From Gammaproteobacteria bacterium (GTDB taxonomy: Bacteria > Pseudomonadota > Gammaproteobacteria > UBA4575), in NCBI GenBank assembly GCA_965222615.1, contig CBDCUI010000009.1, positions 32,001 through 96,000 of the forward strand: a stretch of 64,000 nt of DNA, written 5' to 3'. Shown here one piece after another: positions 1-30,318 of the stretch; the stretch's first letter is position 1, and every line of letters begins with the position of its first letter. The translations under genes and the position numbers were made by a program. The notes beneath the pieces were generated by a model that searched no databases, had not been told where the DNA came from, and saw only the letters and a list, made by a program, of their open reading frames with translations.

Positions 1-86
1 GTAATCAGTACATCGGCCTGAACACTCGCCACTAAACAGGTTGAGAGTAATATGTAGAAAAATGCATTAATTATTTTTTTCATCAT
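1..86 (-). CDS. 5' end (runs off the window) of a second signal-peptide + Rhs-core cartridge gene
   Basis: Minus strand reads MMKKIINAFFYILLSTCLVASVQADVLIT..., nearly identical to the N-terminus of the 956-1813 gene; not in the ORF track because it is truncated. Confidence 0.85.
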   Translation of the reverse strand, partial: MMKKIINAFFYILLSTCLVASVQADVLI

Positions 87-130
87 TCTTATAGCTTTAC
101 AATTTCTAGTTTGACATTGTATTAGAGTGA
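1..130. repeat. Direct repeat of 1728-1857 (cartridge 5' UTR plus signal-peptide coding region)
   Basis: Manual alignment at offset 1727: 9 mismatches in 130 nt; includes about 44 nt upstream of the ATG. Confidence 0.95.
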
Positions 131-318
131 AGCTCTAGAAGCAGTTCGAGACAGAGTTTGCGATGTGGTCGTTATGAAGGGTTATATGTATCGGTATCCA
201 GCACCACGATTCATAACATGATACCAGGCTCTTGGAAATTCGAGTACGTAACAAACAGGACATGAACAAATTATATTATCATCTGCTCTGTACAATAGAC
301 TTGACGTCAATACTTTAC

Positions 319-930
319 CTATATTTTATTTTGCTGATCATTTACCCAGAGAAAGGCTGCTTGTGCTTCCTTATATTCTTCAGGGTATTGATCAGATCTG
401 AAAATTTCGAGTGAACTTTTTAAGTATTTGTGGGACTCTTTTAACATATTTTTTATTTCTTTTTGTTCAAATTCACTTGAAAAATTAAGTACCAATTCAT
501 TAAGGGAATACGCAATATAAGCTTTTATGCTAGCAAGCAATTCTTTGTCCGCTTCATAATATTTGCCAATAAGCGCTTGTTTGTAATGGTAAATACAGCG
601 TGTAAGATTGTTGACGCGATTATTTTGGGGGCGTTCGTAATAAGCCCAACCCAAATTTTTCTGAAGCTTGCTCCATTCGTCAGATAGTGGTTCGAGTTGA
701 GAAATCAATTGTTCAAAGATCTGAATAGCTTCATCACAAGTATTCTTGAAATTATCTTCTACATTTAGCAAAGCAATTGCTAGAACTTTCTTAGCGTAGT
801 AAAGCTTATCGGTTTTCAATGTTGGTATATGCTGGATAGCATTTCTGCATAGTTCAATACATTTTTCCCACTCTTGATTGAGATAGGCTTCTTTAATTTT
901 ATCTAGATACAATGATGATTCTTTTTTCAA
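319..930 (-). CDS. Helical/TPR-like protein, putative immunity protein for the upstream Rhs toxin tip
   Basis: 203-aa ORF starting 25 nt after the toxin gene stop; TPR-like segment (LQKNLGWAYYERP...CIYHYKQAL); position is typical of toxin-immunity pairs. Confidence 0.6.
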   Translation of the reverse strand: MKKESSLYLDKIKEAYLNQEWEKCIELCRNAIQHIPTLKTDKLYYAKKVLAIALLNVEDNFKNTCDEAIQIFEQLISQLEPLSDEWSKLQKNLGWAYYERPQNNRVNNLTRCIYHYKQALIGKYYEADKELLASIKAYIAYSLNELVLNFSSEFEQKEIKNMLKESHKYLKSSLEIFRSDQYPEEYKEAQAAFLWVNDQQNKI

Positions 931-955
931 TTATTTACCTAAATCTTTGTTCAGT

Positions 956-1813
956 TTACCCGCCTTCATTCATTCGATTTTTAATCCTTTGTTTTGTTTT
1001 TCCTCCTGGTTGATCAGGATAAGCGTCCTTGATTCCTCGTTCTTTATCGATCAATTCATCTACACCACCTTGCTTTTGATCTTTATGTGCTTGGGTCATA
1101 TCACCAAAATGCTCATCTCGCTCCTTTTGTTTTTTTGTTCTTTCTTTATCATGCTTACGTCGTTCTTTTGCGCTTAGTTTTTTAGGAGTCTCTTCTTTGA
1201 TTTCATCCGCACTAGTATCATTAGATTCCCCATCGTCACCACTATTTGATTCATTATTGAATGCACTGCTACCTGAAATATCAGGACCGATCGAGATAGT
1301 GTTTGGGTTTCTATCTAATATGTCTAGAGTGTTCTGAATAGTATTTACGGCAACAGCTGCAACGACTACTGTAAATGCTAGAAACCCAAATACTACTACT
1401 GCGTTCTCCCCATCCGGATCTACATACTTATACGGATTATTATTAACAAAAGCATAGCGGTTGAAAGAGTGCAGATTGGCCGGGTCCACACCAACTGGAT
1501 CTACCGCCATAAACCGCCCAATCTTAGAATCACAATAGCGGGCTCCAAGATAGGTTAAGCCCGTTGCCTCGTCTAAAGGTTTGCCGGTATGCCATTGTCG
1601 ATTATTTTTTGATTTGGGATCCTTCTCTACTCGCTCGCCAAAAGGCATATATTCTTCCTGCCACAACAGGGTTCCATTCTCATCCGTGGCGGCCACTGGT
1701 GAGCCCAACAAATCATTGTGGTAATAGGTAATCAGTACATCGGCCTGAACACTCGCCACCAAAAAGATTGAGAGCAGAATGTAGAAAAATGCATTAATTA
1801 TTTTTTTCATCAT
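956..1813 (-). CDS. Signal peptide + Rhs-associated core + variable C-terminal (toxin) domain
   Basis: MMKKIINAFFYILLSIFLVASVQA|D signal peptide; core motifs YYHNDLLGSP, YMPFGE, GLTYLGARY, GRFMAVDPVG, NPYKYVDPDG; then a hydrophobic segment and a charged tip. Start placed at 1813 because the upstream ATG (1849) is ATA in the second copy. Confidence 0.9.
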   Translation of the reverse strand: MMKKIINAFFYILLSIFLVASVQADVLITYYHNDLLGSPVAATDENGTLLWQEEYMPFGERVEKDPKSKNNRQWHTGKPLDEATGLTYLGARYCDSKIGRFMAVDPVGVDPANLHSFNRYAFVNNNPYKYVDPDGENAVVVFGFLAFTVVVAAVAVNTIQNTLDILDRNPNTISIGPDISGSSAFNNESNSGDDGESNDTSADEIKEETPKKLSAKERRKHDKERTKKQKERDEHFGDMTQAHKDQKQGGVDELIDKERGIKDAYPDQPGGKTKQRIKNRMNEGG

Positions 1814-1872
1814 TCTTATATCTTTACAATTTCTAGTTTGACATTGCATTAGTGTGAAAAGGAAATTCGATA

Positions 1873-4800
1873 TTAGTTACCACCTGAAGTCACATCCACT
1901 TTATCCAAAGCCATGCGTTCACTACCTGAATCAGGATTAGGACCTGTTGCTGTGAAGCGCAAATACTTGGTACCACTGGTGGCGAACGTAGTCGACATGG
2001 ATAAAGTTGGGAAGGAAGCACCACTGCTTACCGTATCATTCATTACACCAATTTGGGTGTACGGACCAGCTAAGCTCTCGGCCGCTTCAACTTGAAAAGT
2101 GCCACGTGATACATTCAACTGATACTGAAGATCAAGGCTATAAGTGCCTGCACTACTGACGGTAATCGGGAAAGTGACAAATTCACCGATCGCATTGCTG
2201 TGGTAGAGGAGGAACTGTCCGTTGCTGGCGCCAGTATTAGACTTAATAGAAGTGGTGGTGGTGCCATCACTATCGGCAATGGTGAGGTTTTCAAATTCAA
2301 ACGTAGTGGTTTGCCCTGCGGTCTGAATGGTCCAGGTAAAGGAAGCGTTATCGGTGCCACCATTGCCATCGTCTACTGTAACAGTGGTATTAAACGTATT
2401 TGCAGTGGTTACAGTACCGGTAATGAGGCCGGTGGCACTATTAATGCTCAATCCTGTAGGTAGTCCGGTTGCGCTGTAAGTTAAGGTGTCTCCGGCATCC
2501 GGATCACTGGCTTGAATTTGTACACTCACACTGCCGCCTTCGGTGTGAGTTTGATTGCCAGGGTTCGTAATGGTGGGGGGATTATTACTGCCACCACTAG
2601 TTTGTACATCCCAAGTAAAGCTGGCAGTGTCGCTGCCGCCATTGCCATCATCGACAGTTACGATGGGGTTAAAGGTTCCCGCTGTCGTTACCGTACCATT
2701 GATAAGTCCCGAACTGTTGTTAATACTTAATCCAGTAGGTAAGCCCGTTGCACTGTAAGTTAAGGTGTCTCCAGCATCCGGATCACTGGCTTGAATTTGT
2801 AAACTCACACTGTCGCCTTCGGTATGTGTTTGTGTGCCCGGATTGGTGACTGTCGGGGGAGTGTTGTTAGGACCTCCACCGCCCGAGGTTACATCCACTT
2901 TATCCAAGGCCATGCGTTCACTACCTGAATCAGGATTAGGACCTGTTGCTGTGAAGCGCAAATACTTGGTACCACTGGTGGCGAACGTAGTCGACATGGA
3001 TAAAGTTGGGAAGGAAGCACCACTGCTTACCGTATCATTCATTACACCAATTTGGGTGTACGGACCAGCTAAGCTCTCGGCCGCTTCAACTTGAAAAGTG
3101 CCACGTGATACATTCAACTGATACTGAAGATCAAGGCTATAAGTGCCTGCACTACTGACAGTAATCGGGAAAGTGACAAATTCACCGATCGCATTGCTGT
3201 GGTAGAGGAGGAACTGTCCGTTGCTGGCGCCAGTATTAGACTTAATAGAAGTGGTGGTGGTGCCATCACTATCGGCAATGGTGAGGTTTTCAAATTCAAA
3301 CGTAGTGGTTTGCCCTGCGGTCTGAATGGTCCAGGTAAAGGAAGCGTTATCGGTGCCACCATTGCCATCGTCTACTGTAACAGTGGTATTAAACGTATTT
3401 GCAGTGGTTACAGTACCGGTAATGAGGCCGGTGGCACTATTAATGCTCAATCCTGTAGGTAGTCCGGTTGCGCTGTAAGTTAAGGTGTCTCCGGCATCCG
3501 GATCACTGGCTTGAATTTGTAGACTCACACTGCCGCCTTCGGTGTGAGTTTGATTGCCAGGGTTCGTAATGGTGGGGGGATTATTACTGCCACCACTAGT
3601 TTGTACATCCCAAGTAAAGCTGGCAGTGTCGCTGCCGCCATTGCCATCATCGACAGTTACGATGGGGTTAAAGGTTCCCGCTGCCGTTACCGTACCATTG
3701 ATAAGTCCCGAACTGTTGTTAATACTTAATCCAGTAGGTAAGCCCGTTGCACTGTAAGTTAAGGTGTCTCCAGCATCCGGATCACTGGCTTGAATTTGTA
3801 AACTCACACTGTCGCCTTCGGTATGTGTTTGTGTGCCCGGATTGGTGACTGTCGGGGGAGTGTTGTTAGGACCTCCACCGCCCGAGGTTACATCCACTTT
3901 ATCCAAGGCCATGCGTTCACTACCTGAATCAGGATTAGGACCTGTTGCTGTGAAGCGCAAATACTTGGTACCACTGGTGGCGAACGTAGTCGACATGGAT
4001 AAAGTTGGGAAGGAAGCACCACTGCTTACCGTATCATTCATTACACCAATTTGGGTGTACGGACCAGCTAAGCTCTCGGCCGCTTCAACTTGAAAAGTGC
4101 CACGTGATACATTCAACTGATACTGAAGATCAAGGCTATAAGTGCCTGCACTACTGACGGTAATCGGGAAAGTGACAAATTCACCGATCGCATTGCTGTG
4201 GTAGAGGAGGAACTGTCCGTTGCTGGCGCCAGTATTAGACTTAATAGAAGTGGTGGTGGTGCCATCACTATCGGCAATGGTGAGGTTTTCAAATTCAAAC
4301 GTAGTGGTTTGCCCTGCAGTTTGAATAGTCCAGGTAAAGGAAGCGTTATCGGTGCCACCATTGCCATCGTCTACTGTAACAGTGGTATTAAACGTATTTG
4401 CAGTGGTTACAGTACCGGTAATGAGGCCGGTGGCACTATTAATGCTCAATCCTGTAGGTAGTCCGGTTGCGCTGTAAGTTAAGGTGTCTCCGGCATCCGG
4501 ATCACTGGCTTGAATTTGTAGACTCACACTGCCGCCTTCGGTGTGAGTTTGATTGCCAGGGTTCGTAATGGTGGGGGGATTATTACTGCCACCACTAGTT
4601 TGTACATCCCAAGTAAAGCTGGCAGTGTCGCTGCCGCCATTGCCATCATCGACAGTTACGATGGGGTTAAAGGTTCCCGCTGCCGTTACCGTACCATTGA
4701 TAAGTCCCGAACTGTTGTTAATACTTAATCCAGTAGGTAAGCCCGTTGCACTGTAAGTTAAGGTGTCTCCAGCATCCGGATCACTGGCTTGAATTTGTAA

Positions 4801-7800
4801 ACTCACACTGTCGCCTTCGGTATGTGTTTGTGTGCCCGGATTGGTAACTGTCGGGGGAGTGTTGTTCGATGAATTTGGATCTGTACCATTACGTATTTCA
4901 ACACAATCAGGAATTTGATCGCTATCGGAATCCGTTGAGCAGTCATCCCTTCTTGCAAAAAGCGAATTATTTAAATAAATATAATCTGTGTAATCTCCTG
5001 TCTGTGGATTCTTTTCGTGGAGTAACTGTCCATTTTGGCCATAGACTGAATATTTAATAATGTTTCCATTGTCACGTTCTATGGTGCGACGGTTATTGGC
5101 ATCATATTCATAATCCATATCTAAGCTTGATGAATCAACTGAAATCAGATTAGAGAGATCATCGTAGACGAAAGTTTGCATATTAGTTCCACGTTGGGTA
5201 ATGTTTCCGTACGCATCATAAGTAATGTTGTTGTAGTCACTCATCCCAGAAACTGAAGTTAACCTATTGGAAGCATCATAACTATAGGTTCTTACTGCCC
5301 CATCGATTAGCTTAGAGGTAATATTTCCAGTAGCGGAATAAGTGGCAGACCAGTTTAAATCACCTGATATGGAAGTTAGCCGATCTGCAGCGTCATAACT
5401 TAAAGCTTTATTTGTGGATCGTACTTGGTCATTAATATTTGTAATATTTGCTTTACCATCATAGGTGTAGGTTAGATTAACAATATCTGAGGCGCCACCC
5501 ACAAAACTTTGTAGAGTTTTTGGGAAAAGACGGTTGTTAAACTGAATATCTGAGACTGCACCATTTGCATATAAGATTGAATCGGGCCACCCAGTTAAAT
5601 GTGGTGTTACAGTAGAAGTGTTCCCATCAAAGTTTACATTACGAGGCCTACCAAGATTATCAGGATTGTAGGCAACTGTGATTCCGCTACCAACTCCAGT
5701 TGCACCTGGATAGGTTATGGTATTTAGAAAATCTAAACTACTATAAGTATAGTTCAACTTCATAGAATCTGTACCCATAGTGAGTTTTTCTTCAGTTAAA
5801 TTATCATTTGGGTCATAGATATAGTCCCAAGTAATGCTATCTTTAATAGATTTAGTGACATTATCATTTGCATCATAGATAAAGGTAACGTTTGGTGAAC
5901 TTGATCCGGGGTAGCGAATAAACTCCAATCGATTTAAATCATCATATTCAAATGTAGTGGTGCCAGAAGCACCAACTTTTCTCGAGGTTAAATTTCCCGA
6001 TGCATCACGACCAAGAATAGTAGTGCCCGTCTCAGGGTTAACGATAGAAGTTAAATATTTTCTAGAGTCATAGCCATATGCTCTATTCATACCACCTTGG
6101 TTGACCGCAGTAATTTGATCTAAGTTGTTTCTAGTAATAGTGGTTGGAATAATTGTGGTTCCACTTGAATTTTTTACATTAATACCAGTGAGTGAACGTT
6201 TGTTGGAATCGCCATAGGACCGATAGATTAGATCTGTATCTAGTCCACGTTCATTGGTTATACGCACAGTATTGTTATTAGTTAAATAGTTATAACTGAC
6301 ATTAACATTTGCACCATTTTCCGGATTTGGTTTTGAGATATTAGTAATACGATCAAGCGCATCGTAACTAAATGATGTGGGTCGATTAGGATTAGTGCCT
6401 TGATAAGGTTGTGCGGTCTGTATTAAACGTCCAGTAGCATCATAAACTGATTCATTTGTGATCGTAATTCCACGTGCTAAGTCTGAGGTTTCTCTTTTAA
6501 CCACTCGGCCAAATCCATCATAGCGCAAAATGTCTCTAAACTTATTAGCCCCACGCGTGAGGGTTCTTCTTGCTTGGCTGGAATCATTCACACTCCAAAC
6601 TATATTGACCGAATCATTGTGAGGTGGATCAATTAAGGTCAGTCGCTTTAAACTATCGTAGTCAAAATTTGTTTGAAACCCGCGACCGTTTCTTTCCCAA
6701 TTAATAGTGCCGTCTTGTTGATTGACATCACGCGTGATGATTTTACCTTCTGGATGATTTTCTGTTTCTGGAATGCCGCGGAAAAAGTTACTGAATGTAC
6801 GAATTTTTCCTCTGGGGTCCGTAATCTGGTTTACGTTTCCGTATAAGTTATCGTATTGAAATGAATTTGTTACACCATAGCGATTTTCTGATGTAACTTG
6901 TCCTTTATTGTTAAACGTACGAGTAATATTTCCAGGAATACCAGAAACTGCTTCTGTTTTCGTTAAACGCGTAAACCAATTGAATAAATTTGCAGTTTCA
7001 AAGGTTAAATCGGTAGTTTTAGTAGGGGTAGTAGCACTACCATTTTTACCAGTTTCAATAATTTTTTTGGCGTTACCATAGAAGTCATAATCAGCCAGTG
7101 GAAATTGTGTAATGTATGTAGCGCCGTCACGTACTGTATCTACACGTGTAAGTAATGGTGCAAAGACATCGTTATCGAATTTTGTTTCTCGAAATGGCCT
7201 TTTATGTAGTTGGTCCGAAATTTTTGATTTGGCACTTGCATCATTTTGCCAAGTCATCGTTTCTGTTTGTAAAGTTACATTTGATAAGCTTTTAATTTGT
7301 TTCTCTTGCATTAGACCCACTTTCCATAAATCACCAGTTTGATTTATGGTGTGAAAACTGAAGTGTTTGTATACAAATATCCCATGTGGTGCCGTTACAG
7401 TCGTAGTTTGTGGAGTCCCGGGGGCGGCACTAAATGGCACATTAAAATCATACGTCCATGTGCCAGGTGTGATGGATTGTCCACTCACTGCTCTTGTTTT
7501 AATGGACGTAGTCAAATCATTCGTATTAAAGCAAGTCCCTTGAGTATTGTTTGGTTCAAAACAAACTTTTTGATAGGTGTAATCAATGTTACCGTTCCAC
7601 GGCGTTGTGATTTGTTTTAATGCATGAGCACCTGCGCCAGTTGGGTTGCTTCCAGGCGTACCATTTCCATCATAATAGTTATAGCGCCAGCTAGAAAAAT
7701 CTTGACGCCTAACTCTTGTTAAGTGATAAAACGTTCCTGATACTCCAGAAACTAAACTGTATTCATAGATCCATTGAGATAAAATATCTGAAATCATTGT

Positions 7801-8670
7801 GACACGTGCATACGCTTGTGATGCATCCGCATATGTTAAGGTAACTGGATTGCCTTGTTGTACTCCACTAATATTTTTCATCGTAAGTGTATTCACGAGG
7901 TGCCCATGGCTTGGGCGGTTTATATAGGTGATATCAATATGGTTGCCAGAAGAGTGAATGATTCGAGTGGTGTAAAGTGTACCGGTTCCTGTATTTCTGG
8001 CACCCATTTCATATATTTTTCCATCGGGTGATGTGATGACTAATCCTTGAAATGATTGGCCAGCGCCGTCAAGTCCACTAGGCTGTGTAAAGTTTTGACA
8101 TCTAGCTCGCCAACGATCTGTAGTGATGTAATCGTTTGTAGTAATACCTGCTTGAGTCAAACTGGAACGATATAAAATTCTGCGACTGCCATCTTCACGT
8201 TCAAAAACCGGGCTATTTTCAGTGGTTTCCGTAGATTGAACTTGTGGACAAGTAGTGAAACTATTTACGTTTAATACCCGACCATAATTAATTGTCCAGC
8301 CTACACCTGCTCCAGTACTTGCAGTTCCAGATTCACCGCTAGTCAGCGAACCATTTTGTGGTGGTGTGTATACTCTACGTACTTCTAAATTAAATCCTGC
8401 ATGACCTGGAATAAATAAATCGACTTGTTGAACATTTAAAGCCCCAGAAAAATTATCAATAAAATCTACATCATTCTGATTTAGATAATCTCTAAAAGGA
8501 TAGAACCCTGGTTCGGAATAAAAATCAGGGATATGATTGGCGTACGTATTCGATGCTACTAATAAAAGTAAAAGCAGAACACGAAAAGTAAATTTAAAAG
8601 TTTTTAAAAATGGTTGTTTGCGATTAAGTAATTTGAAAATATAGACACACCAACCAGAATAGTTTTTCAT
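1873..8670 (-). CDS. Large secreted YD/RHS-repeat protein with C-terminal TSP3-like linker and 3x(Ig-like He_PIG x2 + CBM6/35-like) tail; no Rhs core
   Basis: Signal peptide (VLLLLLLVASNTYA); DUF6531-like DNFSGALNVQQVDLFIPG; many YD repeats (YDGFGR, YDALDR, YDDLNRL, YDAYGN); He_PIG motif LTYSATGLPTGLSINSATGLITGT; no DPxG core. Confidence 0.9.
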   Translation of the reverse strand: MKNYSGWCVYIFKLLNRKQPFLKTFKFTFRVLLLLLLVASNTYANHIPDFYSEPGFYPFRDYLNQNDVDFIDNFSGALNVQQVDLFIPGHAGFNLEVRRVYTPPQNGSLTSGESGTASTGAGVGWTINYGRVLNVNSFTTCPQVQSTETTENSPVFEREDGSRRILYRSSLTQAGITTNDYITTDRWRARCQNFTQPSGLDGAGQSFQGLVITSPDGKIYEMGARNTGTGTLYTTRIIHSSGNHIDITYINRPSHGHLVNTLTMKNISGVQQGNPVTLTYADASQAYARVTMISDILSQWIYEYSLVSGVSGTFYHLTRVRRQDFSSWRYNYYDGNGTPGSNPTGAGAHALKQITTPWNGNIDYTYQKVCFEPNNTQGTCFNTNDLTTSIKTRAVSGQSITPGTWTYDFNVPFSAAPGTPQTTTVTAPHGIFVYKHFSFHTINQTGDLWKVGLMQEKQIKSLSNVTLQTETMTWQNDASAKSKISDQLHKRPFRETKFDNDVFAPLLTRVDTVRDGATYITQFPLADYDFYGNAKKIIETGKNGSATTPTKTTDLTFETANLFNWFTRLTKTEAVSGIPGNITRTFNNKGQVTSENRYGVTNSFQYDNLYGNVNQITDPRGKIRTFSNFFRGIPETENHPEGKIITRDVNQQDGTINWERNGRGFQTNFDYDSLKRLTLIDPPHNDSVNIVWSVNDSSQARRTLTRGANKFRDILRYDGFGRVVKRETSDLARGITITNESVYDATGRLIQTAQPYQGTNPNRPTSFSYDALDRITNISKPNPENGANVNVSYNYLTNNNTVRITNERGLDTDLIYRSYGDSNKRSLTGINVKNSSGTTIIPTTITRNNLDQITAVNQGGMNRAYGYDSRKYLTSIVNPETGTTILGRDASGNLTSRKVGASGTTTFEYDDLNRLEFIRYPGSSSPNVTFIYDANDNVTKSIKDSITWDYIYDPNDNLTEEKLTMGTDSMKLNYTYSSLDFLNTITYPGATGVGSGITVAYNPDNLGRPRNVNFDGNTSTVTPHLTGWPDSILYANGAVSDIQFNNRLFPKTLQSFVGGASDIVNLTYTYDGKANITNINDQVRSTNKALSYDAADRLTSISGDLNWSATYSATGNITSKLIDGAVRTYSYDASNRLTSVSGMSDYNNITYDAYGNITQRGTNMQTFVYDDLSNLISVDSSSLDMDYEYDANNRRTIERDNGNIIKYSVYGQNGQLLHEKNPQTGDYTDYIYLNNSLFARRDDCSTDSDSDQIPDCVEIRNGTDPNSSNNTPPTVTNPGTQTHTEGDSVSLQIQASDPDAGDTLTYSATGLPTGLSINNSSGLINGTVTAAGTFNPIVTVDDGNGGSDTASFTWDVQTSGGSNNPPTITNPGNQTHTEGGSVSLQIQASDPDAGDTLTYSATGLPTGLSINSATGLITGTVTTANTFNTTVTVDDGNGGTDNASFTWTIQTAGQTTTFEFENLTIADSDGTTTTSIKSNTGASNGQFLLYHSNAIGEFVTFPITVSSAGTYSLDLQYQLNVSRGTFQVEAAESLAGPYTQIGVMNDTVSSGASFPTLSMSTTFATSGTKYLRFTATGPNPDSGSERMALDKVDVTSGGGGPNNTPPTVTNPGTQTHTEGDSVSLQIQASDPDAGDTLTYSATGLPTGLSINNSSGLINGTVTAAGTFNPIVTVDDGNGGSDTASFTWDVQTSGGSNNPPTITNPGNQTHTEGGSVSLQIQASDPDAGDTLTYSATGLPTGLSINSATGLITGTVTTANTFNTTVTVDDGNGGTDNASFTWTIQTAGQTTTFEFENLTIADSDGTTTTSIKSNTGASNGQFLLYHSNAIGEFVTFPITVSSAGTYSLDLQYQLNVSRGTFQVEAAESLAGPYTQIGVMNDTVSSGASFPTLSMSTTFATSGTKYLRFTATGPNPDSGSERMALDKVDVTSGGGGPNNTPPTVTNPGTQTHTEGDSVSLQIQASDPDAGDTLTYSATGLPTGLSINNSSGLINGTVTTAGTFNPIVTVDDGNGGSDTASFTWDVQTSGGSNNPPTITNPGNQTHTEGGSVSVQIQASDPDAGDTLTYSATGLPTGLSINSATGLITGTVTTANTFNTTVTVDDGNGGTDNASFTWTIQTAGQTTTFEFENLTIADSDGTTTTSIKSNTGASNGQFLLYHSNAIGEFVTFPITVSSAGTYSLDLQYQLNVSRGTFQVEAAESLAGPYTQIGVMNDTVSSGASFPTLSMSTTFATSGTKYLRFTATGPNPDSGSERMALDKVDVTSGGN
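1877..4867. repeat. Three near-identical 999-bp tandem intragenic repeats
   Basis: Sequence at 1892, 2891 and 3890 matches at an exact 999-nt offset; shadow ORFs recur at the same period. Confidence 0.95.
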
Positions 8671-8886: not shown

Positions 8887-10071
8887 TTAATCGCGTCTTA
8901 ATTTATCTGAAATTGCAATGGGAGTTGGATAGCGCAGCACTATTAAATAAGTAGAAAGAATAAAGCTTACAATGGTGCATACCTGAATAAAGTTGGCGGC
9001 TTTGATCGAGATTAATCCGGCACTAAGTGCAACAAAACCTAGTAATAAAGAAAACTCGCTTAACTGGCCTAAACGCACGCCAATTTCATTTGAATCTTGT
9101 TCGGTTTCACCGCTCTTTTTTATTAATAGTTTGAACACAAATGGTTTGATGAACAATAAAACTGCACTGGTAATAATCGCTGGTATCAATAGCTGATAGG
9201 CAAGCCCTATATCTAGACTTGCACCTAAAGAAAAGAAAAATATGACTAAGAAAAAGTCTCGAATTGGCTTTAGGCTTTCAGAAATGAAGAATGAGATCGG
9301 GCCTACTGCAATCGAGACTCCTGCAATGAAAGCTCCGGTTTCATGTGATAAGCCAATAAAATAAGCGAGTTCTGCAATCCCCAAGCACCAGCCAATAGCC
9401 AATAGAAAAATGTACTCTTTGATCTTATCGAATTTCGTCATCAATTTGATTAATACATAACGTTCAACTACAAAAGTAAAGGCAATTAAACCCGGTAAGG
9501 CGATAGCAAGTTGAATGATTCCCTTTATAGCGCTGGCGTCATTACCCTGCGTCTCAATAAGAAGCAAAAGCACAATTGCCAAAATATCTTGCAGTAACAA
9601 TATACTTATAATGATTCCACCGACATGTTGGTGATGTAACACGGTTGTGGGGAGAAGTTTTAACCCAATTATGGTGCTGGAAAACATAAATGCACCTGCA
9701 ATGATTAATTGGTCCATAAGCGAAAGTTGCAATATCCAAGCTGCAGCAAAACCAATTAGGGCAAACAGTATTGAGCTTCCAAACGTTATAAGTGTTGATT
9801 GTTTGATTGATGCGAGGAGCTTTTGTGGGTGTAGATTGAGTCCCAATAAAAATAGCAAGAACATGATACCGACTTTGGCGATCTGCCGAGAAAATTCGGT
9901 ATCCGACACAAAATTCAATACTGAAGGCCCAAGAATAATGCCTACAGCTATATATGCGACCAATAATGCTTGTCTGGCAAAAAGAGCTACGGTGGCTAAT
10001 ATGGCCGCACTTGTAAAGATGATAAATATAGAAAATATAATCGATTCAGATGAGGTTATGTTTAAATCCAC
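8887..10071 (-). CDS. Cation:proton antiporter (CPA2 family)
   Basis: Multi-TM protein with AYIAVGIILGP, FLLFLLGL, SSTII, LLLQD and GQLSEF motifs. Confidence 0.85.
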   Translation of the reverse strand: MDLNITSSESIIFSIFIIFTSAAILATVALFARQALLVAYIAVGIILGPSVLNFVSDTEFSRQIAKVGIMFLLFLLGLNLHPQKLLASIKQSTLITFGSSILFALIGFAAAWILQLSLMDQLIIAGAFMFSSTIIGLKLLPTTVLHHQHVGGIIISILLLQDILAIVLLLLIETQGNDASAIKGIIQLAIALPGLIAFTFVVERYVLIKLMTKFDKIKEYIFLLAIGWCLGIAELAYFIGLSHETGAFIAGVSIAVGPISFFISESLKPIRDFFLVIFFFSLGASLDIGLAYQLLIPAIITSAVLLFIKPFVFKLLIKKSGETEQDSNEIGVRLGQLSEFSLLLGFVALSAGLISIKAANFIQVCTIVSFILSTYLIVLRYPTPIAISDKLRRD

Positions 10072-10099
10072 CTGATTACATCCTGTCTTGCATTGGCAT

Positions 10100-11299
10100 C
10101 TAACTTAACAATTCAATCCAGTGTTTAACCGGTATTTGAGTACCTGACTGTAGGTGCAACAAACAGCCGATATTAGCTGTCGCGATCACATCAGGCTGTT
10201 TTTCTTCAAGCGTTGAAATCTTATTTTGTAACAACATGTTGGATAGTTCTTCTTCAAGCAGAGAATAACTCCCAGCGGAACCACAGCATAGATGCGGCTC
10301 TTTAACATCAATTAGTTGATAACCAGCTTCTCGAAGTTTGTTTTCTACATTGCCAAGGATTTTTTGTCCATGTTGCAGTGTACAAGGACTGTGGAAAGCG
10401 ACTGTTTTATTTTTTGCCTCAGGTTTAGTTAATTTTAACTCAGGGGTCATTTCAGTAAGATCTCGACAGCGTTGCGAGACGAATTTAGCCTTATCCGCAT
10501 AAGATTTATCAGCTTGCATAATAGTGCTATATTGCTTTATAAAACTGCTGCAACCACTTGAAGTTACTAATAAATATTCATGGTTACTAGAGAGTTTTTC
10601 ATACCAATTGTCGATATTGCCACGAATGGTCTTATTGGCCTGGTCGATATTTGTTAAATGATAGGCCAGGGCTCCACAACAGTTTGCTTTGGCCTCATCT
10701 AGTTGAATATCAGAGTTTTGTAAAACCTCTGAAGTTGCTGCATTGATTTGTGGAGCTGCAGTAGACTGTACACAACCTTTTATCGTCAACATTTTTCGTT
10801 TGCTGGTTTTGGTATTAGTTGATTTGATGGGTTTAGCTTTTACTGGAATCTTACTGGCGAATGATCTTGGTAATATTGGCTTAACCAGACGGGCTAGTGC
10901 AAAAAAGCTCACAACGCGCCTAGGGTGCGAGAAAATACGAATAATCAAATTTCGTTTTAAATTATCCAAAAAAGGTCGTTCAATCGTTTTTTCAAAATGT
11001 TTGCGTCCTATATCCACTAAATCACCATATTCAACACCAGAAGGACAAGTAGTTTCACATGCCAAACAAGTCAAACATCTATCGAGGTGTTGTTGGCTCA
11101 CCTTGCTGGTGTCTTTGTTCTCAAAGAAGTTTTTAATTAAATAAATGCGCCCACGTGGGCCATCTAGTTCATCACCTGTGAGCTGAAAAGTGGGACAGGT
11201 GGCATTACAAAACCCGCAATGTACACAGTTTCGTAAAATTTCATTCACCCGCTGGCCATCGTGGCTTTGTAAAAATGCTTGTGTAAATGATGTTTGCAT
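10100..11299 (-). CDS. glcF: Glycolate oxidase Fe-S subunit
   Basis: CVHCGFCNATCP and CLTCLACETTCP ferredoxin motifs, CCG domains, operon with glcDE. Confidence 0.93.
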   Translation of the reverse strand: MQTSFTQAFLQSHDGQRVNEILRNCVHCGFCNATCPTFQLTGDELDGPRGRIYLIKNFFENKDTSKVSQQHLDRCLTCLACETTCPSGVEYGDLVDIGRKHFEKTIERPFLDNLKRNLIIRIFSHPRRVVSFFALARLVKPILPRSFASKIPVKAKPIKSTNTKTSKRKMLTIKGCVQSTAAPQINAATSEVLQNSDIQLDEAKANCCGALAYHLTNIDQANKTIRGNIDNWYEKLSSNHEYLLVTSSGCSSFIKQYSTIMQADKSYADKAKFVSQRCRDLTEMTPELKLTKPEAKNKTVAFHSPCTLQHGQKILGNVENKLREAGYQLIDVKEPHLCCGSAGSYSLLEEELSNMLLQNKISTLEEKQPDVIATANIGCLLHLQSGTQIPVKHWIELLS

Positions 11300-11304
11300 C
11301 GCGA

Positions 11305-12360
11305 TTAAAGTTCAGCGTACATCTTGCCAGGATTGAGGATGCCTGCCGGATCGAATGTTTTTTTCAAATTTTTATGTATTTTCATGGAGGTATGGGATAG
11401 TGGATGAAAGCGTTGTTCTGTAGTATTGCCTCTAAATAAACAAGCATGTCCTCCAACTTGTTCAGCTTCTTTACGAATAAGCTGTTCATCGGCATCACTT
11501 ACATACCAGCGCAATGCTCCGCTCCATTCAATGACATTGTCACCAGGTATATTTAAGATACCGGTAGCAGGCGGCACAGAAATTCTCCATAAAGACAGGT
11601 CGGTTTGGAAAAATTCATGTGTCTGCTCTTTCACACTGGTCCAAAACAATTCGTTTTGATCAAAAGTTTTTCCACCAATTTCCTTTTTACAGGCTTCAAT
11701 GGTAGATAAGGAACCTGATAAACGCAGATATAAATCCTGCCCATCATAAAAGGTTGCGGTAATAGGCATAGGTGTCGCAGCCCACTGGTTCATTTTTTTG
11801 ATGGCAGTGTGACTGTCTAATTCTATAACAACAGTGTGTTCATAAAGTGGTTTTGGTAATAGGCGTATGGTGATACACATCAACACGCCAAGTGTCCCTA
11901 ATGCCCCACACATCAAACGTGAAACATCATATCCGGCAACGTTTTTCATTACCTTGCCACCGAAGCGCAGATATTCGCCTTTGCCGTTTACGATTTCAGT
12001 TCCTAGCACACAGTCGCGTACTGCGCCTGCACTGACTCGTCTGGGTCCGGCTAAGCCACTGGCAACCATGCCACCCAATGTTGCAGTCGCTCCAAAATGA
12101 GGGGATTCACAAGGAATAATTTGGTTTTCTTTAGTTATAGTTTGCTCAATTTCTACTAGCGGAGTTCCACTTTTAACAGTTATATAAAGCTCTGAAGGCT
12201 CGTATTCGAGAATCCCTGTGTGGTTTGCCACAGAAAGTGTTTTCGCTTGAATATTTCTTCCATAAAAATTTTTCGTATCACCCGCTTTAATGACTAAAGC
12301 CTGTTTTTGGCGATATGCGTCTTGAATAACAGATGTGATCTCATCTCTTTTATCGTGCAT
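11305..12360 (-). CDS. glcE: Glycolate oxidase FAD-binding subunit
   Basis: GILEYEPSEL, FGGKVMKNVAGYDVSRL, FDPAGILNPG. Confidence 0.93.
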   Translation of the reverse strand: MHDKRDEITSVIQDAYRQKQALVIKAGDTKNFYGRNIQAKTLSVANHTGILEYEPSELYITVKSGTPLVEIEQTITKENQIIPCESPHFGATATLGGMVASGLAGPRRVSAGAVRDCVLGTEIVNGKGEYLRFGGKVMKNVAGYDVSRLMCGALGTLGVLMCITIRLLPKPLYEHTVVIELDSHTAIKKMNQWAATPMPITATFYDGQDLYLRLSGSLSTIEACKKEIGGKTFDQNELFWTSVKEQTHEFFQTDLSLWRISVPPATGILNIPGDNVIEWSGALRWYVSDADEQLIRKEAEQVGGHACLFRGNTTEQRFHPLSHTSMKIHKNLKKTFDPAGILNPGKMYAEL

Positions 12361-12380
12361 AGAAAAATCTTAAGGAAGCA

Positions 12381-13850
12381 TTAGAAGCGAGGGAGATCGG
12401 GGTGTGGAAGTTTACCCTGATGGACATGCATGGCACCGAACTCCGCACAGCGGTGTAGGGTAGGGACAGCCTTGCCAGGATTCATCAGTTCATTTTCATC
12501 AAAAGCAGCTTTTATTGAATAAAATGTGTTTAACTCCGCTTCATTAAATTGCACACACATTTGGTTAAGCTTTTCTACACCAACTCCATGTTCGCCGGTA
12601 ATAGTGCCACCCACGGCAACACACAGTTCTAAAATTTCACCGCCAAACTGTTCTGCAGTTTCTAATTCTCCTAGCTTATTTGCATCATATAAAATGAGTG
12701 GATGTAGGTTTCCGTCTCCTGCATGAAACACATTGGCTACGCCTAGACCATATTTAACAGACAGCTTGCTAATACTTTCTAAAACTCTGGCCAGATGTTT
12801 ACGCGGAATGGTGCCATCCATGCAATAATAATCCGGTGATAAATTGCCTAAGGCAGGGAATGCGGCCTTGCGGCCTTGCCAAAGTTTTTCAGCCTCTCGA
12901 TCATTTTGTGCAACTCGTACTTCTATTGCATGATGTTCTTTAAAGACGTTTTTAGTAAACGTAACTTGTGATTGCAGTTCTTCTGCATAGCCGTCCAACT
13001 CACAAATTAATATTGCCGCGGCATTTTCTGGATAGCCCGGACTACAAAATTTTTCTGTGGCCTGAATGGTGCAATGATCCATTAATTCCAATCCGGCCGG
13101 GATAATGCCACTTGAAATAATTCCGGCTACCGCATCACCTGCTTTAGGAATGGTATCAAACGCCGCAAGCAATACTTTACGCTTATGTGGATGAGGTAAA
13201 AGTTTCACAGTAGCCTCTAGGACAATTCCAAGCATGCCTTCTGAACCTGTCATCAATGCAAGTAAATCATAACCGGGAGAATCAAAACTTTTTCCACCGA
13301 GTTCTAAAATTTCTCCATCTATGGTTAGCACTTTTAAGCCAAGAAGATTGTGCACTGTCAAGCCATATTTGAGACAGTGCACCCCACCTGAATTTTCTGC
13401 AATATTGCCACCAATGGTACAGGCGATCTGCGAGGATGGGTCAGGTGCGTAATATAGGCCATACGGATTAGCGGCTCCAGAAATTGCCAGGTTTCTAACT
13501 CCTGGCTCCACGGTTGCAGTGCGGTTATCAGGATCAATCTCAAGTATGTGGTTAAGCCTAGCAAAATTGAGTAACACACCTTCAGAATGTGGCAGTGCGC
13601 CGCCCGAGAGGCTGGTGCCCGCTCCACGCGCCACAATGGGTACTTTTAACTCTCTACAGATGTCGACAATTGCCTTGATTTCATTAACTGTGCTCGGGAT
13701 CAAGGCAATTCGAGGTAGTTGTTTGTAAGCGGTAAGGGCATCACATTCATAGGGGTAGAGCTGTTCTTTTTTTGCTAAAACCGCGGTTTCCGGCAAGACT
13801 TGATGAAAGCGTTCGGCAAGTTTGGATAGGCTAATTGCGTCGTTGTTCAT
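12381..13850 (-). CDS. glcD: Glycolate oxidase subunit GlcD
   Basis: RGAGTSLSGG, YYAPDPSSQIACTIGGN, FHAGDGNLHP, GEHGVG. Confidence 0.95.
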   Translation of the reverse strand: MNNDAISLSKLAERFHQVLPETAVLAKKEQLYPYECDALTAYKQLPRIALIPSTVNEIKAIVDICRELKVPIVARGAGTSLSGGALPHSEGVLLNFARLNHILEIDPDNRTATVEPGVRNLAISGAANPYGLYYAPDPSSQIACTIGGNIAENSGGVHCLKYGLTVHNLLGLKVLTIDGEILELGGKSFDSPGYDLLALMTGSEGMLGIVLEATVKLLPHPHKRKVLLAAFDTIPKAGDAVAGIISSGIIPAGLELMDHCTIQATEKFCSPGYPENAAAILICELDGYAEELQSQVTFTKNVFKEHHAIEVRVAQNDREAEKLWQGRKAAFPALGNLSPDYYCMDGTIPRKHLARVLESISKLSVKYGLGVANVFHAGDGNLHPLILYDANKLGELETAEQFGGEILELCVAVGGTITGEHGVGVEKLNQMCVQFNEAELNTFYSIKAAFDENELMNPGKAVPTLHRCAEFGAMHVHQGKLPHPDLPRF

Positions 13851-14198
13851 TTCGGCTCAAACCCAAATACATAGGGGAGTTCTGATTTATTAATGAAATG
13901 GCTGAGATTAGGCAAAATGATTTCGAAAAAACGGAGTGTATATAGGCATACATGAGTATTTTGAGAAATCATTACTAATTTATTTTTTTGGGACATATCA
14001 GAATAAATCAGAGCTTCCATAGGTTTTTGCATGATTGATCTTGGCTAAAGTTCTCATATAATCTCGCCACCAGCTTGATTGCTATCAATTCTTTATTTCT
14101 CAATATACCATTGATCAATATAGTTCATAGTAATTTCAGATAGTTGTTTCATTGATCTAGGTTAATTTAATAATGAACCGTAACAAGGGAGATATATT

Positions 14199-14570
14199 TT
14201 GACCATAGCAGCAATTGCTATTGGGGGCGCACTTGGATCCGTGTTGAGATATCTGATTCAGATGCAGTGTATGACTTGGTTTGGCACCAAGTTTCCCTAC
14301 GGGACCCTGATCGTTAATATCCTTGGATCTTTAGCAATAGGTTTTCTATCTATTTTCCTGGTGGAACGATTGCTAGTCTCTACGGAGCTTCGTTTTGCCA
14401 TCCTAGTAGGGTTGCTAGGAGGCTTTACTACTTTTTCAGCGTTTTCACTAGAAACACTGAGTCTTATCCAGCAGGGAAATATGCTCAGTGCTGCGAGCAA
14501 CATCGGGTTAAGTATTGTGCTATGTATCTTGGCGTGCTTTTTTGGTGTGTTGTTAGCACGTGCAATTTAA
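14199..14570 (+). CDS. crcB: Fluoride channel FluC/CrcB
   Basis: GGALGSVLRY, GTLIVNILGS, GGFTTFS. Confidence 0.93.
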   Translation: MTIAAIAIGGALGSVLRYLIQMQCMTWFGTKFPYGTLIVNILGSLAIGFLSIFLVERLLVSTELRFAILVGLLGGFTTFSAFSLETLSLIQQGNMLSAASNIGLSIVLCILACFFGVLLARAI

Positions 14571-14586
14571 CTAAGTTAATACAGAG

Positions 14587-15867
14587 ATGTTAGATCCAAA
14601 ATTATTACGTACAGAATTTGATGAAGTTGCTAAGCAGCTTAGTCGGCGTGGTTTAAATCTAGATAAAGCACGTTTCACTGAGATGGAAGAAAGGCGCAAG
14701 AAGCTCCAAATCGCAACGGAAGAATTGCAAGGTCAGCGTAATAAAAATTCCAAGCTTATTGGGCAGGCGAAATCTAAAGGCAGAGATGCAAGTGAAATTT
14801 TAGCCCAAATGGAAAAAATTAACAGTGAACTTAAAAGTAATGAAACCTTGTTGGAAGAACTTCAGCAAGAAATACAAGAATGGATGTTTGGTCTTCCAAA
14901 TATGCCACATGAGTCAGTGCCGCAAGGTGAAACTGAAGAAGAAAATCTGGAAGTAAGGAAATGGGGCGAGATACCTAGTTTTGATTTTAAAGTACTAGAT
15001 CATGTCGATGTTGGTGAAAAATTAGGTGGCTTGGATTTTGAAACTGCAGCCAAGATAACTGGAAGTCGATTCGTCACCATGCATGGTGATGTTGCAAAGC
15101 TGCATCGAGCGCTTATTCAGTTTATGTTAGACACACATGTAAATGAACATGACTATCAAGAAGTGTATGTTCCCTATATTGCAAATGCGCAAAGTTTAAC
15201 GGGCACCGGCCAATTACCGAAATTTGAAGAAGATCTATTTAAACTTAAAACAGAGCATGATTACTATTTGATTCCTACTGCAGAAGTGCCGGTGACAAAT
15301 ATTTGGCGCGACCATATTGCAAAGGAAAAAGAGTTACCGATTAAATATGTATGTCATACCCCTTGCTTTCGTTCCGAAGCCGGTTCTTATGGAAAAGATA
15401 CACGTGGCATGATTCGCCAACATCAATTTGAGAAAGTTGAATTAGTTCAGTTGGTTAAACCAGAAGCTTCATGGCGCATGTTAGAAGAATTAACCGGGCA
15501 TGCAGAAACTATATTGCAAAAATTAGAACTACCTTATCGTGTAGTTACATTATGCACTGGTGATTTAGGTTTTTCTTCTGCTAAAACTTACGATATTGAG
15601 GTGTGGTTACCAGGCCAAAATACTTATCGAGAAATTTCTTCCTGTAGTAATTTTTTAGACTTTCAAGCAAGAAGATTAAAAGCGCGTTGGAAAAACACTG
15701 TTACGAAAAAAACAGAATTGTTGCATACATTAAATGGATCTGGTTTAGCAGTAGGTAGAACGTTAGTCGCAATTCTTGAAAATTATCAAGATGAAAAAGG
15801 TAATGTTCAAATTCCGAAAGTATTAATTCCTTATATGCGCGGCTTAGAAACTATTCGTTCTAAATAA
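14587..15867 (+). CDS. serS: Serine--tRNA ligase
   Basis: [44 protein letters not shown]. Confidence 0.98.
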
Positions 15868-28365: not shown

Positions 28366-30318
28366 TTAAGTCACACTAGAAGTTTGTGAAGCTGCGTTGT
28401 TAGATTCTGAGCGTGTTTGCTCGCCTTTATCATTATTACGTTTACTGTTGTAATTTCGATTATTAGCACGTCTTCTCGAGTTATCATTTCTGCGTCTGTT
28501 ATTGTTACGCGAATTATCACGCGAACTTCTTCGTCTTTGTCCACCAGAACGATTACGTTGACGATTATTGTTTTGATACTTTCTTGAGCGCTCTCTTGAT
28601 TTGTTGGCGTGTGAAGCTCTTTTCTTCTGTGTTTGTTCTTCTTTTCCAAATAGTGAAGTAATTAAGCGGCTAAAAAATCCAGGTTTTGTAGGGCTTGCTG
28701 GCTTTTGTGGTGTGGGAGCAGGGCTTGTAGTTTGTATGGATTTCACCGCAGGTTGTTCGGTAACAGGTGTTGTGTGCGCAGTTAAGTTCACACTGGTTTC
28801 TTCTGCTGGTATCAAGTCATAACTTGATTTGTCACTTAATTCTTTATCATCATCACGTATACGTTCTACAGAAAAATGAGGTGTTTCAAGATTAGGGTCG
28901 GGAACTATAATAAGTTGGACTTTGTGTCGCGCTTCGATTTCACTAATAGCAGTACGTTTTTCATTTAACAAGAAGCTTGTTACATCAACAGGTAACTTTG
29001 CGATTACTTTGCCGGTTTTTTCTTTCATCGCTTCTTCTTCAATCAGGCGTAACACGGCTAAGGCAAGCGATTCAATACCGCGTATCGTGCCATGACCCGT
29101 ACAACGAGGGCATACAATTTGACTGGATTCTTTCAGCGATGGCCGCAATCTTTGGCGTGACATTTCTAATAGGCCAAAACGCGAGATTCTGCTTATTTGT
29201 ACTCGAGCACGGTCAATTTTTAATGCCTCACGTAGACGATTTTCTACTTCGCGTTGATTTTTATTTGACATCATGTCAATGAAATCAATAACGATAAGCC
29301 CGCCTAGATCACGTAAACGTAGTTGTCTGGCGATTTCATCAGCTGCTTCGAGATTGGTGTTTAGTGCAGTTTCTTCTATATCACTGCCTTTAGTGGCTCT
29401 GGCAGAGTTGATATCAATAGATATCATCGCTTCAGTATGGTCAATAACCACGGAACCACCTGATGGTAGTGAAACTTCACGCTCAAAGGCGGATTCAATT
29501 TGGGTTTCAATTTGATAGCGATTGAATAGAGGCACGGTATCTTCATATAAATTAAGCTTTTTAAGATTGTGGGGCATAACTTGCTCGACAAACTTCTTCG
29601 CGTCATTAAAGACACGTGCATCGTCAATAATAATTTCACCAATATCATCCCTAAGATGGTCACGTAGGGCACGAATAATTACATTGCTTTCTTGATAGAT
29701 GAGAAATGGCTCATCTTGAGAGTCTGCAGCTTTTAGGATGGCGTTATTAAGTTGTAACAGATAGTTAAGGTCCCATTGCAATTCCTCGACGGTTCGTCCT
29801 ACACCTGCAGTTCGAACAATGGTCCCCATACCTTTAGGTATATCAAGCTGTTCGACGGTGTTACGTAGTTCTTCACGTTCATCGCCTTCAATGCGGCGAG
29901 AAACCCCACCAGCTCGAGGATTATTCGGCATTAAAACAAGATAACGACCGGCAAGACTTAAATATGTGGTGAGTGCTGCACCTTTATTGCCACGTTCTTC
30001 GCGCTCAACTTGGATGGTTATTTGTTGCCCTTCGGATAAAAGATCTTTGATAGGAGCACGATCGTCAGCATTCGAGTTATTATCTAAATAACTGCGTGCA
30101 ATTTCTTTAAAGGGAAGAAAGCCATGGCGTTCTGCGCCATAGTTTACAAAGGCGGCCTCAAGGCTCGGTTCAATACGAGTGATTACACCCTTGTAAATAT
30201 TGCCTTTCTTTTGGTTTCGTGACGGTAATTCGATGTCTAGGTCGTATAGTCGCTGACCGTCGACCATCCCTACACGCAATTCCTCTTGCTGTGTAGCATT
30301 GATTAAAATTCTTTTCAT
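28366..30318 (-). CDS. rne: Ribonuclease E (short form, 650 aa)
   Basis: [17 protein letters not shown]1 domain, [15 protein letters not shown] Zn-link, membrane helix [12 protein letters not shown], Arg-rich segment; divergent from rluC. Confidence 0.95.

Follow-up and report, generated by a model that had tools for sequence, protein, structure and literature searches.

A Rhs locus in a gammaproteobacterium with the YD-repeat shell and the core-toxin cartridges in separate genes, each with a likely Sec-type leader

A 64,000-nucleotide (nt) stretch of DNA from a gammaproteobacterium of the UBA4575 lineage (assembly GCA_965222615.1, contig CBDCUI010000009.1, positions 32001-96000, written G000:C9:32001-96000 in our numbering and hereafter called the window) carries at its left end a Rhs locus in which the cage and the core with its toxin are encoded by two genes. 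The upstream gene encodes a shell of YD repeats without the Rhs core, and the next gene encodes a signal-peptide-like leader, the whole core and a variable C-terminal tip, a unit that we refer to as a cartridge. All features of the locus lie on the minus strand. This split between a shell and a signal peptide-core-toxin protein is well supported as a conserved architecture, and the break is located exactly at one hairpin of the Rhs fold. We consider that the locus probably represents a bipartite Rhs polymorphic-toxin system, independent of a type VI secretion system (T6SS) and assembled in the periplasm.

The shell gene (1873-8670) is an open reading frame (ORF) of 2265 amino acids (aa). Its first 44 residues (8539..8670) form a signal-peptide-like leader according to our own heuristic, with a basic n-region, a VLLLLLLVA h-region and ..TYA before NHIPDFY, and the ..IPDFY..PG motif is found directly behind the hydrophobic leader in every homologous shell examined. 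The shell proper (aa 45-1242, 4945..8538) was matched in Pfam and NCBIfam scans by RHS_repeat (E 2.9e-16) and YD_repeat_2x, while neither PF03527 nor the TIGR03696 core was detected in the protein at E<=0.01 with the same databases. A preliminary description, made from the letters of the sequence, had placed the end of the YD repeats at about 4945-4985 and had noted that the core is absent behind it, and both observations hold: the final YD strand, ..YIYLNNSLFARRD, corresponds to shell aa 1229-1242 (4945-4986) and matches a conserved terminal strand in an alignment of 133 homologues, with Y1232, L1233, R1237 and A1239 nearly invariant. The site where a one-chain Rhs protein would turn into its core is occupied by an Asp-rich linker (aa 1243-1265, 4876..4944). 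Stretches resembling D.DGDG..DC.E..GL.PN are also present behind the shell end in nine of the related loci described below (L009, L010, L012, L027, L037, L045, L046, L082 and L083).

Beyond aa 1242, the protein continues for 1023 aa of immunoglobulin (Ig)-like and carbohydrate-binding module (CBM)-like sequence, most of it in three tandem units of 999 nt (333 aa each; 1879..4875, with a spacing of 999/999 in the repeat search). Each unit contains two He_PIG Ig-like domains and a domain resembling a binding module. He_PIG was detected by Pfam in six stretches of the protein (E 1.3e-107), Big_9 was also matched, and the best solved relatives of the unit domain by sequence were the cadherin-like module of SraP (4m03, E 1.1e-8) and the binding module MiXBM (7ehg, E 1.4e-7). 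Of the linker and tail that had been proposed from the letters, the Ig/CBM tail is thus retained, whereas the calcium-binding or thrombospondin type 3 (TSP3) character of the linker is a likeness by eye only, with no TSP_3 reported by Pfam. As DNA, the units are 98-100% identical over a 300-nt reference stretch. This near-identity points to very recent amplification, and the copy number, which is beyond the resolution of short-read contigs, is probably strain-variable.

The shell stop codon (1873..1875) and the start of cartridge 1 are separated by a spacer of 59 nt (1814..1872), whose last ~45 nt recur upstream of cartridges 2 and 4 (repeat family D4, 131 nt, 93% identity). The ORF of cartridge 1 spans 956-1849, and the start codon used here, MMKK.. 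at 1813, gives a protein of 285 aa (P0004). To evaluate leaders we used a self-made heuristic rather than a trained predictor, which asks for a 9-residue h-region with a mean hydrophobicity >=2.0, a Lys or Arg on its N-terminal side and a small-x-small site on its C-terminal side. By this measure, aa 1-24 (..VASVQA, 1742..1813) are a signal-peptide-like leader, and DVLITYYHNDLLGSP begins directly after ..VQA. The Rhs core follows (mature aa 25-135, 1409..1741), with 69.5 bits for TIGR03696 (cut-off 32.5) and E 1e-8 for PF03527, and carries DPVG and DPDG 23 residues apart; D105, P106, D132 and G135 are invariant among 107 aligned cartridges. Pfam found no YD repeats in the cartridge protein, and TEN_YD-shell gave only weak, sub-threshold matches on its core. 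The variable tip (150 aa plus stop, 956..1408) matched no known family and consists of a very hydrophobic 21-residue stretch followed by an acidic and then a basic low-complexity tail. The second gene is, accordingly, organized as first described, with a start 59 nt after the shell stop, a likely Sec-type leader, the whole core with both DPxG motifs directly behind it, and a variable tip. Since independent short-read contigs from three public runs span window 1791-1939, including the shell stop codon, without any difference, this junction is not an assembly error; over the conserved core, only mixtures of paralogues were seen in those contigs.

The separate cartridge is a widespread form. A search with the cartridge as query against 5.8 billion proteins, restricted to lengths of 163-520 aa, gave 1031 matches at E<=1e-5, and among the best 120 of these nearly all have a hydrophobic leader and, within a few residues,.TY[YF]H.D..GS. 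In the alignment of 107 cartridges (cartridge 1 of the window and 106 matches, with fragments and a few oddly long sequences removed by hand), 102 showed all three features of a leader although its sequence is little conserved, with a majority-residue fraction of 0.36, against 0.73 for the core and 0.26 for the tip.

The genomic surroundings were analysed in species genomes, where 265 relatives were found and 76 distinct loci were retained, from Thiodiazotropha, Undibacterium, Pseudomonas, Acidovorax, Methylovorus, Exilibacterium, Steroidobacter, Ferrimonas, Microbulbifer, Arenicella and many metagenome bins; the named isolates that carry the family include Pseudomonas, Acidovorax, Undibacterium, Methylovorus and Ferrimonas. 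A core-less shell ORF ends less than 400 nt from the first core in 31 of the 76 loci, and the shell lies farther upstream in another 3. One locus has a fused shell-core ORF and then a cartridge, 2 have a fused ORF only, and 15 offer at least 4 kb of upstream DNA with no shell end in the flank. Setting aside the 22 loci with under 4 kb of upstream DNA and the 2 with no N-complete core on the expected strand, 52 loci are informative. Among the shell ORFs that reach the shell end, 37 of 40 are core-less and 3 are fused, and the gap from the shell to the next gene is commonly between -4 and +66 nt, with a 4-nt overlap being frequent. On the cartridge side, 103 of 115 core ORFs are N-complete, the remaining 12 being fragments without the core N-terminus. 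The 103 comprise 89 with an h-region >=2.0, 9 below that value, 3 fused to a shell and 2 cut by the end of a contig. Four of the nine below-threshold ORFs follow an Ig-like domain in place of a leader.

Some members of the family depart from both layouts. The core N-terminus directly follows Ig/FN3-like or other non-leader sequence in L022:9791-10867, L036:9557-10533, L028:9611-10891 and L018:1968-3134, and in L058:9734-11251 a single ORF leads from the last shell strand through a DxDxDG-type linker into it. Such forms may be intermediates between the fused, tail-inserted and split states.

Homologues of the shell were collected with a 1133-aa Undibacterium shell as query, so that tail-less and fused forms would both fit the length window. 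Of 375 matches at E<=1e-20, the best 120 were inspected for continuous ORFs, the form that would speak against a genuine split, and 110 of them were core-less, while the 10 core-bearing ones measured 1400-1577 aa. Half of the core-less shells (55 of 110) end no more than 10 aa past the last strand; the tail measures 11-150 aa in 20 others and is longer, and mostly Ig-like, in the remaining 35. The proposed adhesin tail is thus not a general feature of the family. In fact, shell tails in the family span from none to several thousand residues, and in L051 (G003:C96:67544-71155) a homologous shell is part of a 4663-aa open frame with a tail of more than 3400 aa. Fused forms are collinear with the split pair and have a loop of 5-15 residues in place of the stop, spacer and leader. 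In a FastTree phylogeny of 134 shells, which is unrooted and has several long branches, the fused state requires at least 6 changes, and all deep branches, including that of the window, are split. Finally, an even sample of 400 genomes of the class contained 12, belonging to 12 families, that gave matches at E<=1e-25. There were 19 such matches, and the open frames around them measured 240-406 aa in 16 cases and about 1500-1630 aa in 3. The family is patchy yet broad. Public annotation gives only generic names to the shell and cartridge homologues.

The predicted structure of the shell agrees with these assignments. An AlphaFold2 model of aa 45-1244, built with an alignment of 62 sequences, is all-beta, with a predicted local distance difference test score (pLDDT) of 84.7 and a predicted template modelling score (pTM) of 0.82. 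Its best Foldseek matches in the PDB are Rhs cages (8qja, Tse15 8uy4, RhsA 7q97 and Tse5 8cp6; E 1e-39 to 1e-42), followed by the bacterial teneurin-like protein 9ifo, RhsP and TcdB2-TccC3. When shell aa 385-1244 were co-folded with the mature core (aa 25-140, tip excluded), the interface score computed from predicted aligned errors (ipSAE) was 0.87 in all three runs, and 0.00 for the best of three controls. The runs gave 192-203 contacts and agreed in at least 96% of them, with a pLDDT of the partner of at least 84. The ipSAE mark applied is met by 58 of 80 solved complexes and by 2 of 110 mismatched pairs, although it is a rough guide here, given that our own alignments were used. In the model, cartridge residues 25-31 are paired with the final strand of the shell (1235-1244), the most confident contacts being those of cartridge 27-31 with shell 1237-1242, and the remainder of the core packs on shell residues 827-1244. 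Considering this pairing, the N-terminal strand of the mature cartridge is predicted to continue the sheet from the last shell strand. The proposal that shell and cartridge are exported separately and assemble in trans has thereby gained a predicted interface, and assembly and enclosure stand as predictions. As for secretion, the leaders are likely Sec signals, and crossing of the outer membrane goes beyond that evidence.

In Rhs, Tc (toxin complex) and teneurin-like proteins, the core seals the cage, and the toxin held inside is cut loose by two Asp residues, as stated in PMC13018210; the PDB title of a Tse15 D1369N/D1391N cleavage mutant fits such a two-Asp autocleavage in Rhs proteins. The one-chain Rhs effectors of T6SSs, such as RhsA of P. 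protegens (7Q97), Tse15 of A. baumannii (8UY4) and Tse5 of P. aeruginosa (8CP6), have the same YD beta-cocoon fold as the shell described here and share with the present system a core in which two DPxG motifs provide the Asp residues. Their variable C-terminal toxin and the immunity gene behind it have putative counterparts in the tips and immunity-like genes of the present locus. The spacing of the DPxG motifs is 23 in the window, as opposed to the 18 quoted for other Rhs proteins in the literature. The main difference is that cage and core plus toxin are two genes here, each with a likely Sec-type leader; fold, core and motifs are those of Rhs toxins, and the single polypeptide is the feature in which this system deviates. 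Moreover, no PAAR, VgrG or prePAAR N-terminus is present, the shell starting directly after its leader. The lack of T6SS features had been noted for the window and extends to the whole genome, which is 99.8% complete: TssC, Hcp and PAAR gave no match in it, and control genomes matched for all three. The secretin GspD of the type II secretion system (T2SS) was found above its family cut-off. The presence of GspD, together with leaders in both proteins according to the n/h/c heuristic, would be compatible with the class of Sec/T2SS-exported polymorphic toxins (Zhang et al. 2012).

The TcB-TcC cocoon of Tc toxins (TcdB2-TccC3 4O9X, YenB-YenC2 4IGL; Foldseek E about 5e-31) is the nearest concept to the split system, as it offers a precedent for a YD cocoon made of two polypeptides that encloses a cleaved toxin. 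In Tc toxins, however, the break is in the middle of the shell, both partners have YD repeats and the toxin is part of the chain that forms half of the cage, whereas here the break is at the hairpin between shell and core. In addition, TcB, which binds to TcA, includes SpvB and beta-propeller regions, while no SpvB accompanies the present proteins, which have likely Sec leaders. SpvB was absent from the genome in a search that matched a control genome; the profile searches for VRP1 (TcA) and DotI/IcmL matched no control genome and hence carry no weight. A reading of the locus as a Tc toxin was rejected on the basis of the absence of SpvB from the genome, the lack of YD repeats in the cartridge and the different break point.

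In lifestyle, the nearest relatives are the Sec-dependent WapA and teneurin-like proteins. According to PMC13018210, WapA of Gram-positive bacteria and the bacterial teneurin-like proteins (BiTLP, 9IFO; Foldseek E 2e-33) combine a signal peptide, a YD shell, a core, a small polymorphic toxin and immunity with adhesion domains and T6SS-independent delivery, a set that the present system would share. They are single polypeptides with the adhesion domains N-terminal of the shell, whereas the tail described here is at the C-terminal end of the shell, the break point. The teneurin-like superfold needs an FN-plug, an NHL propeller and a YD shell in one chain, and neither NHL nor FN-plug families were matched in the shell by Pfam at E<=0.01.

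Cartridge 1 is the first of five tandem cartridges downstream of the shell (C9:26226-33849). The 5' end of cartridge 2 is in the window (1..86), where it starts at position 86 and continues past the left edge to G000:C9:31139, and cartridges 3-5 with their small downstream genes are located further left (G000:C9:25832-30427). All five are intact ORFs with a start codon, a leader and a full core. Leader and core are nearly identical among them, and the tips are unrelated after DP[DN]GE; at the DNA level, they are 80-100% identical over a block that opens ~45 nt before the start and closes at the DPxG codons, and 30-45% identical beyond it. The tip of cartridge 4 ends in Ntox33 (E 1e-15). A different small ORF is found behind each cartridge, corresponding in order to no family, DUF6959, TPR, DUF4279 and no family. 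The one behind cartridge 1 (203 aa, 319..930) is termed immunity-like from its position only, and neither a signal peptide nor a Pfam or NCBIfam family above cut-off was detected in it. The gap from an immunity-like gene to the cartridge behind it includes a stretch of ~75 nt that recurs upstream of cartridges 2 and 4 (window about 130-262 and G000:C9 about 28500-28600). A possible start of a Y1 transposase within the repeat between immunity-like gene 1 and cartridge 2 was dropped, its translation having no Pfam match at E<=10.

The array recalls the orphan cassettes of rhs loci in Enterobacteria, in which modules of core, tip and immunity gene are placed in tandem downstream of the main gene. 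Both have a conserved 5' block reaching as far as the DPxG codons. In contrast to the enterobacterial orphans, the modules here are whole genes, each having its own start codon and leader and the entire core.

Regarding the nature of the tips, they measure 129-200 aa in the 107 cartridges, with a median of 163, which is near the toxin size of ~15 kDa that PMC13018210 relates to the cage cavity. Homologous cartridges carry Ntox10 (E 3.8e-54) and HNH. A window of 18 residues with a mean Kyte-Doolittle value >=1.6 is present within about 70 aa of DPxG in 69 of the 107 tips, and the 21-residue stretch of cartridge 1 reaches a mean hydrophobicity of 2.9. Behind the cleavage site, a conserved hydrophobic Gly-rich module (..SP.D..FL.YD.GK......G.G..........G..SP.PGTGQA..) recurs in many members of both the split and the fused type, with P0018, P0033, P0040, P0149 and P0182 as examples; we take it to resemble the 'pre-toxin TG' of polymorphic toxins, and Pfam reported no such family in the scanned proteins. 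Given that the downstream immunity-like proteins are leaderless and that homologues have nuclease-type tips, the target would be cytoplasmic and a further entry step would be needed, which the hydrophobic Gly-rich stretch may serve.

Taking these data together, we infer export, assembly in trans, enclosure, cleavage, release and the use of all five cartridges as the steps of a working model. Both proteins would be exported by Sec and reach the periplasm unfolded, and because their genes are often translationally coupled, shell and cartridge would emerge close together. The mature cartridge would begin with the strand that follows the shell end in one-chain Rhs proteins, and this free N-terminal strand would add to the last shell strand, with the core folding inward as a plug. 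The cage would then surround the tip, and the core, whose aspartyl autoprotease activity is predicted from the two invariant Asp residues, would sever the tip behind DPxG. The loaded cage would leave the cell, possibly via the T2SS, and the shell tail would bind the surface of the target, while the immunity-like gene behind each cartridge would act in the cytoplasm. In an extended version, the cage would be a reusable Sec-exported platform, loaded in trans with any of several co-expressed cartridges and representing a widespread, undescribed class of Rhs weapons; this we advance tentatively, as a possibility with somewhat less than an even chance.

Several observations weigh against a bipartite system of this kind, or limit what can be derived from the data. 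The main internal difficulty of the model is the 21-residue stretch in the tip of cartridge 1, which by its composition would be hydrophobic enough for stop-transfer at SecYEG and anchoring in the inner membrane; stretches this hydrophobic normally halt transfer through SecYEG and anchor the protein. Enclosure of a toxin in trans has no direct precedent in the literature searched, and the co-folded pair comprised part of the shell and the core, the tip being left out. The high score of that pair may also partly reflect likeness to, or memory of, solved one-chain Rhs cages. Clustering of the ORFs of at least 90 aa in the 76 loci revealed no conserved accessory or secretion gene beside the pair, the other recurrent clusters being antisense ORFs inside the shell gene, a response regulator (7 loci) and an unnamed family (5 loci). 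The fused forms, 10 of 120 among the shell homologues and 3 of 40 among the locus shell ORFs, indicate that the split is not obligatory. Furthermore, a shell is lacking from the flank at 15 of the 76 loci, and when five genomes with such loci were searched with two shell queries, three, one of them a 1.9-Mb bin, gave nothing; of the other two, one had its shell just upstream in the 4663-aa frame and one had a partial shell 16 kb away. Lastly, the DNA block shared by the cartridges with 80-100% identity fits a classical recombination model as well as it fits an exchange of payloads without recombination.

This last point leads to an alternative in which only the cartridge next to the shell is used and the four downstream are a silent reserve, replacing the first by recombination through the shared 5' block, with their leaders and start codons merely carried along in it. 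We regard this as a serious possibility, if not one that we would expect to prevail. The abrupt fall in identity behind the DPxG codons is the pattern expected of a recombination substrate, and truncated core fragments without an N-terminus make up 12 of the 115 core ORFs in related loci. Conversely, classical orphans lack the 5' part and the translation start, while each of the five cartridges here is intact with start codon, leader and full core, as are the cartridge ORFs in the arrays of L012, L014, L023, L030, L049, L056 and L057. It is also conceivable that the cartridges are independent Sec-exported toxins without a cage, with the core as a self-cleaving pre-toxin module and the shell as a separate adhesin or an empty relic. 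The flanks of 10 kb without a shell and the three genomes with a cartridge and no detectable shell would agree with such toxins. We nevertheless judge them unlikely, considering that a core-less shell stands directly upstream in 31 loci (52 being informative), frequently with 4-nt overlaps, that the shell always ends on one side of a hairpin in the one-chain fold and the mature cartridge always begins on its other side, that fused relatives are collinear across the break point and that the interface is predicted with high confidence.

A different arrangement would result if the hydrophobic stretch behind the cleavage site were a true stop-transfer anchor, making the cartridge a type I inner-membrane protein with a periplasmic core docked to the shell and a tip held by the immunity protein in the cytoplasm of the producer, that is, an envelope-tethered device rather than a soluble cage. 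The frequency of hydrophobic windows in the tips, with values of up to 2.9 in cartridge 1, the leaderless immunity-like proteins and the basic residues behind the hydrophobic stretch in cartridge 3 and P0009 are compatible with an anchor. A cytoplasmic tip would, however, be undeliverable after cleavage, and the same Gly-rich module, presumably akin to a pre-toxin module of other polymorphic toxins, is present behind the cleavage site in fused relatives of the clade; solved Rhs cages, moreover, reportedly hold hydrophobic pore-forming tips. An anchored cartridge accordingly appears to us quite improbable. As for the decay of a one-chain Rhs gene by a nonsense mutation, a frameshift or an assembly error, one-chain relatives do exist (10 of 120). 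However, dozens of genera show a break at this very point, with a leader added to the downstream part, the contigs from public runs confirm the junction, and between the two halves there are ~1000 aa of folded-domain tail and a 24-aa leader. With 110 of 120 homologues core-less and the tree of shells in addition, readings as a frameshift, pseudogene or assembly error were rejected, their probability being negligible, in agreement with the initial argument from the long tail and the dedicated leader.

Upstream of the shell, positions 8887-15867 of the window contain housekeeping genes, namely serS, three glycolate-oxidase-like genes and one for a Na+/H+ exchanger. A full homologue of the shell is absent from all of 30 relatives, two of them giving partial matches (E about 1e-31) that cover only the last third of the query, and given this absence the Rhs locus looks like an acquired island, which suggests horizontal acquisition. 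Two one-chain Rhs proteins of another clade are also encoded in the genome, at G000:C8:174247-178962 on the minus strand and G000:C9:140301-144722 on the plus strand. With open frames of 1572 and 1474 aa, both carry a hydrophobic leader at the N-terminus and share a ..VGGCGADGG.. start, and they are apparently a second, fused, Sec-dependent kind of Rhs in the same cell.

In the full-text literature searched, no description was found of a separately encoded cage with a signal peptide-core-toxin partner, although the architecture tables of PMC3482391 and PMC13018210, of which only part was accessible, may list such forms. In the current view, the toxin inside Rhs, teneurin and Tc cages belongs to the chain that makes the cage, or to one that contributes half of it. 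If the bipartite system operates as proposed, a small, separate, secreted plug with its toxin would make the filling and closure of the cage directly accessible to study. As a protein container, too, a cage able to take up cargo in trans would be of interest. Under the extended version, Rhs encapsulation could occur after translation and between chains, and one shell gene would field a mixed arsenal without recombination. The system would also describe a T6SS-independent route for the delivery of Rhs toxins in Gram-negative bacteria.

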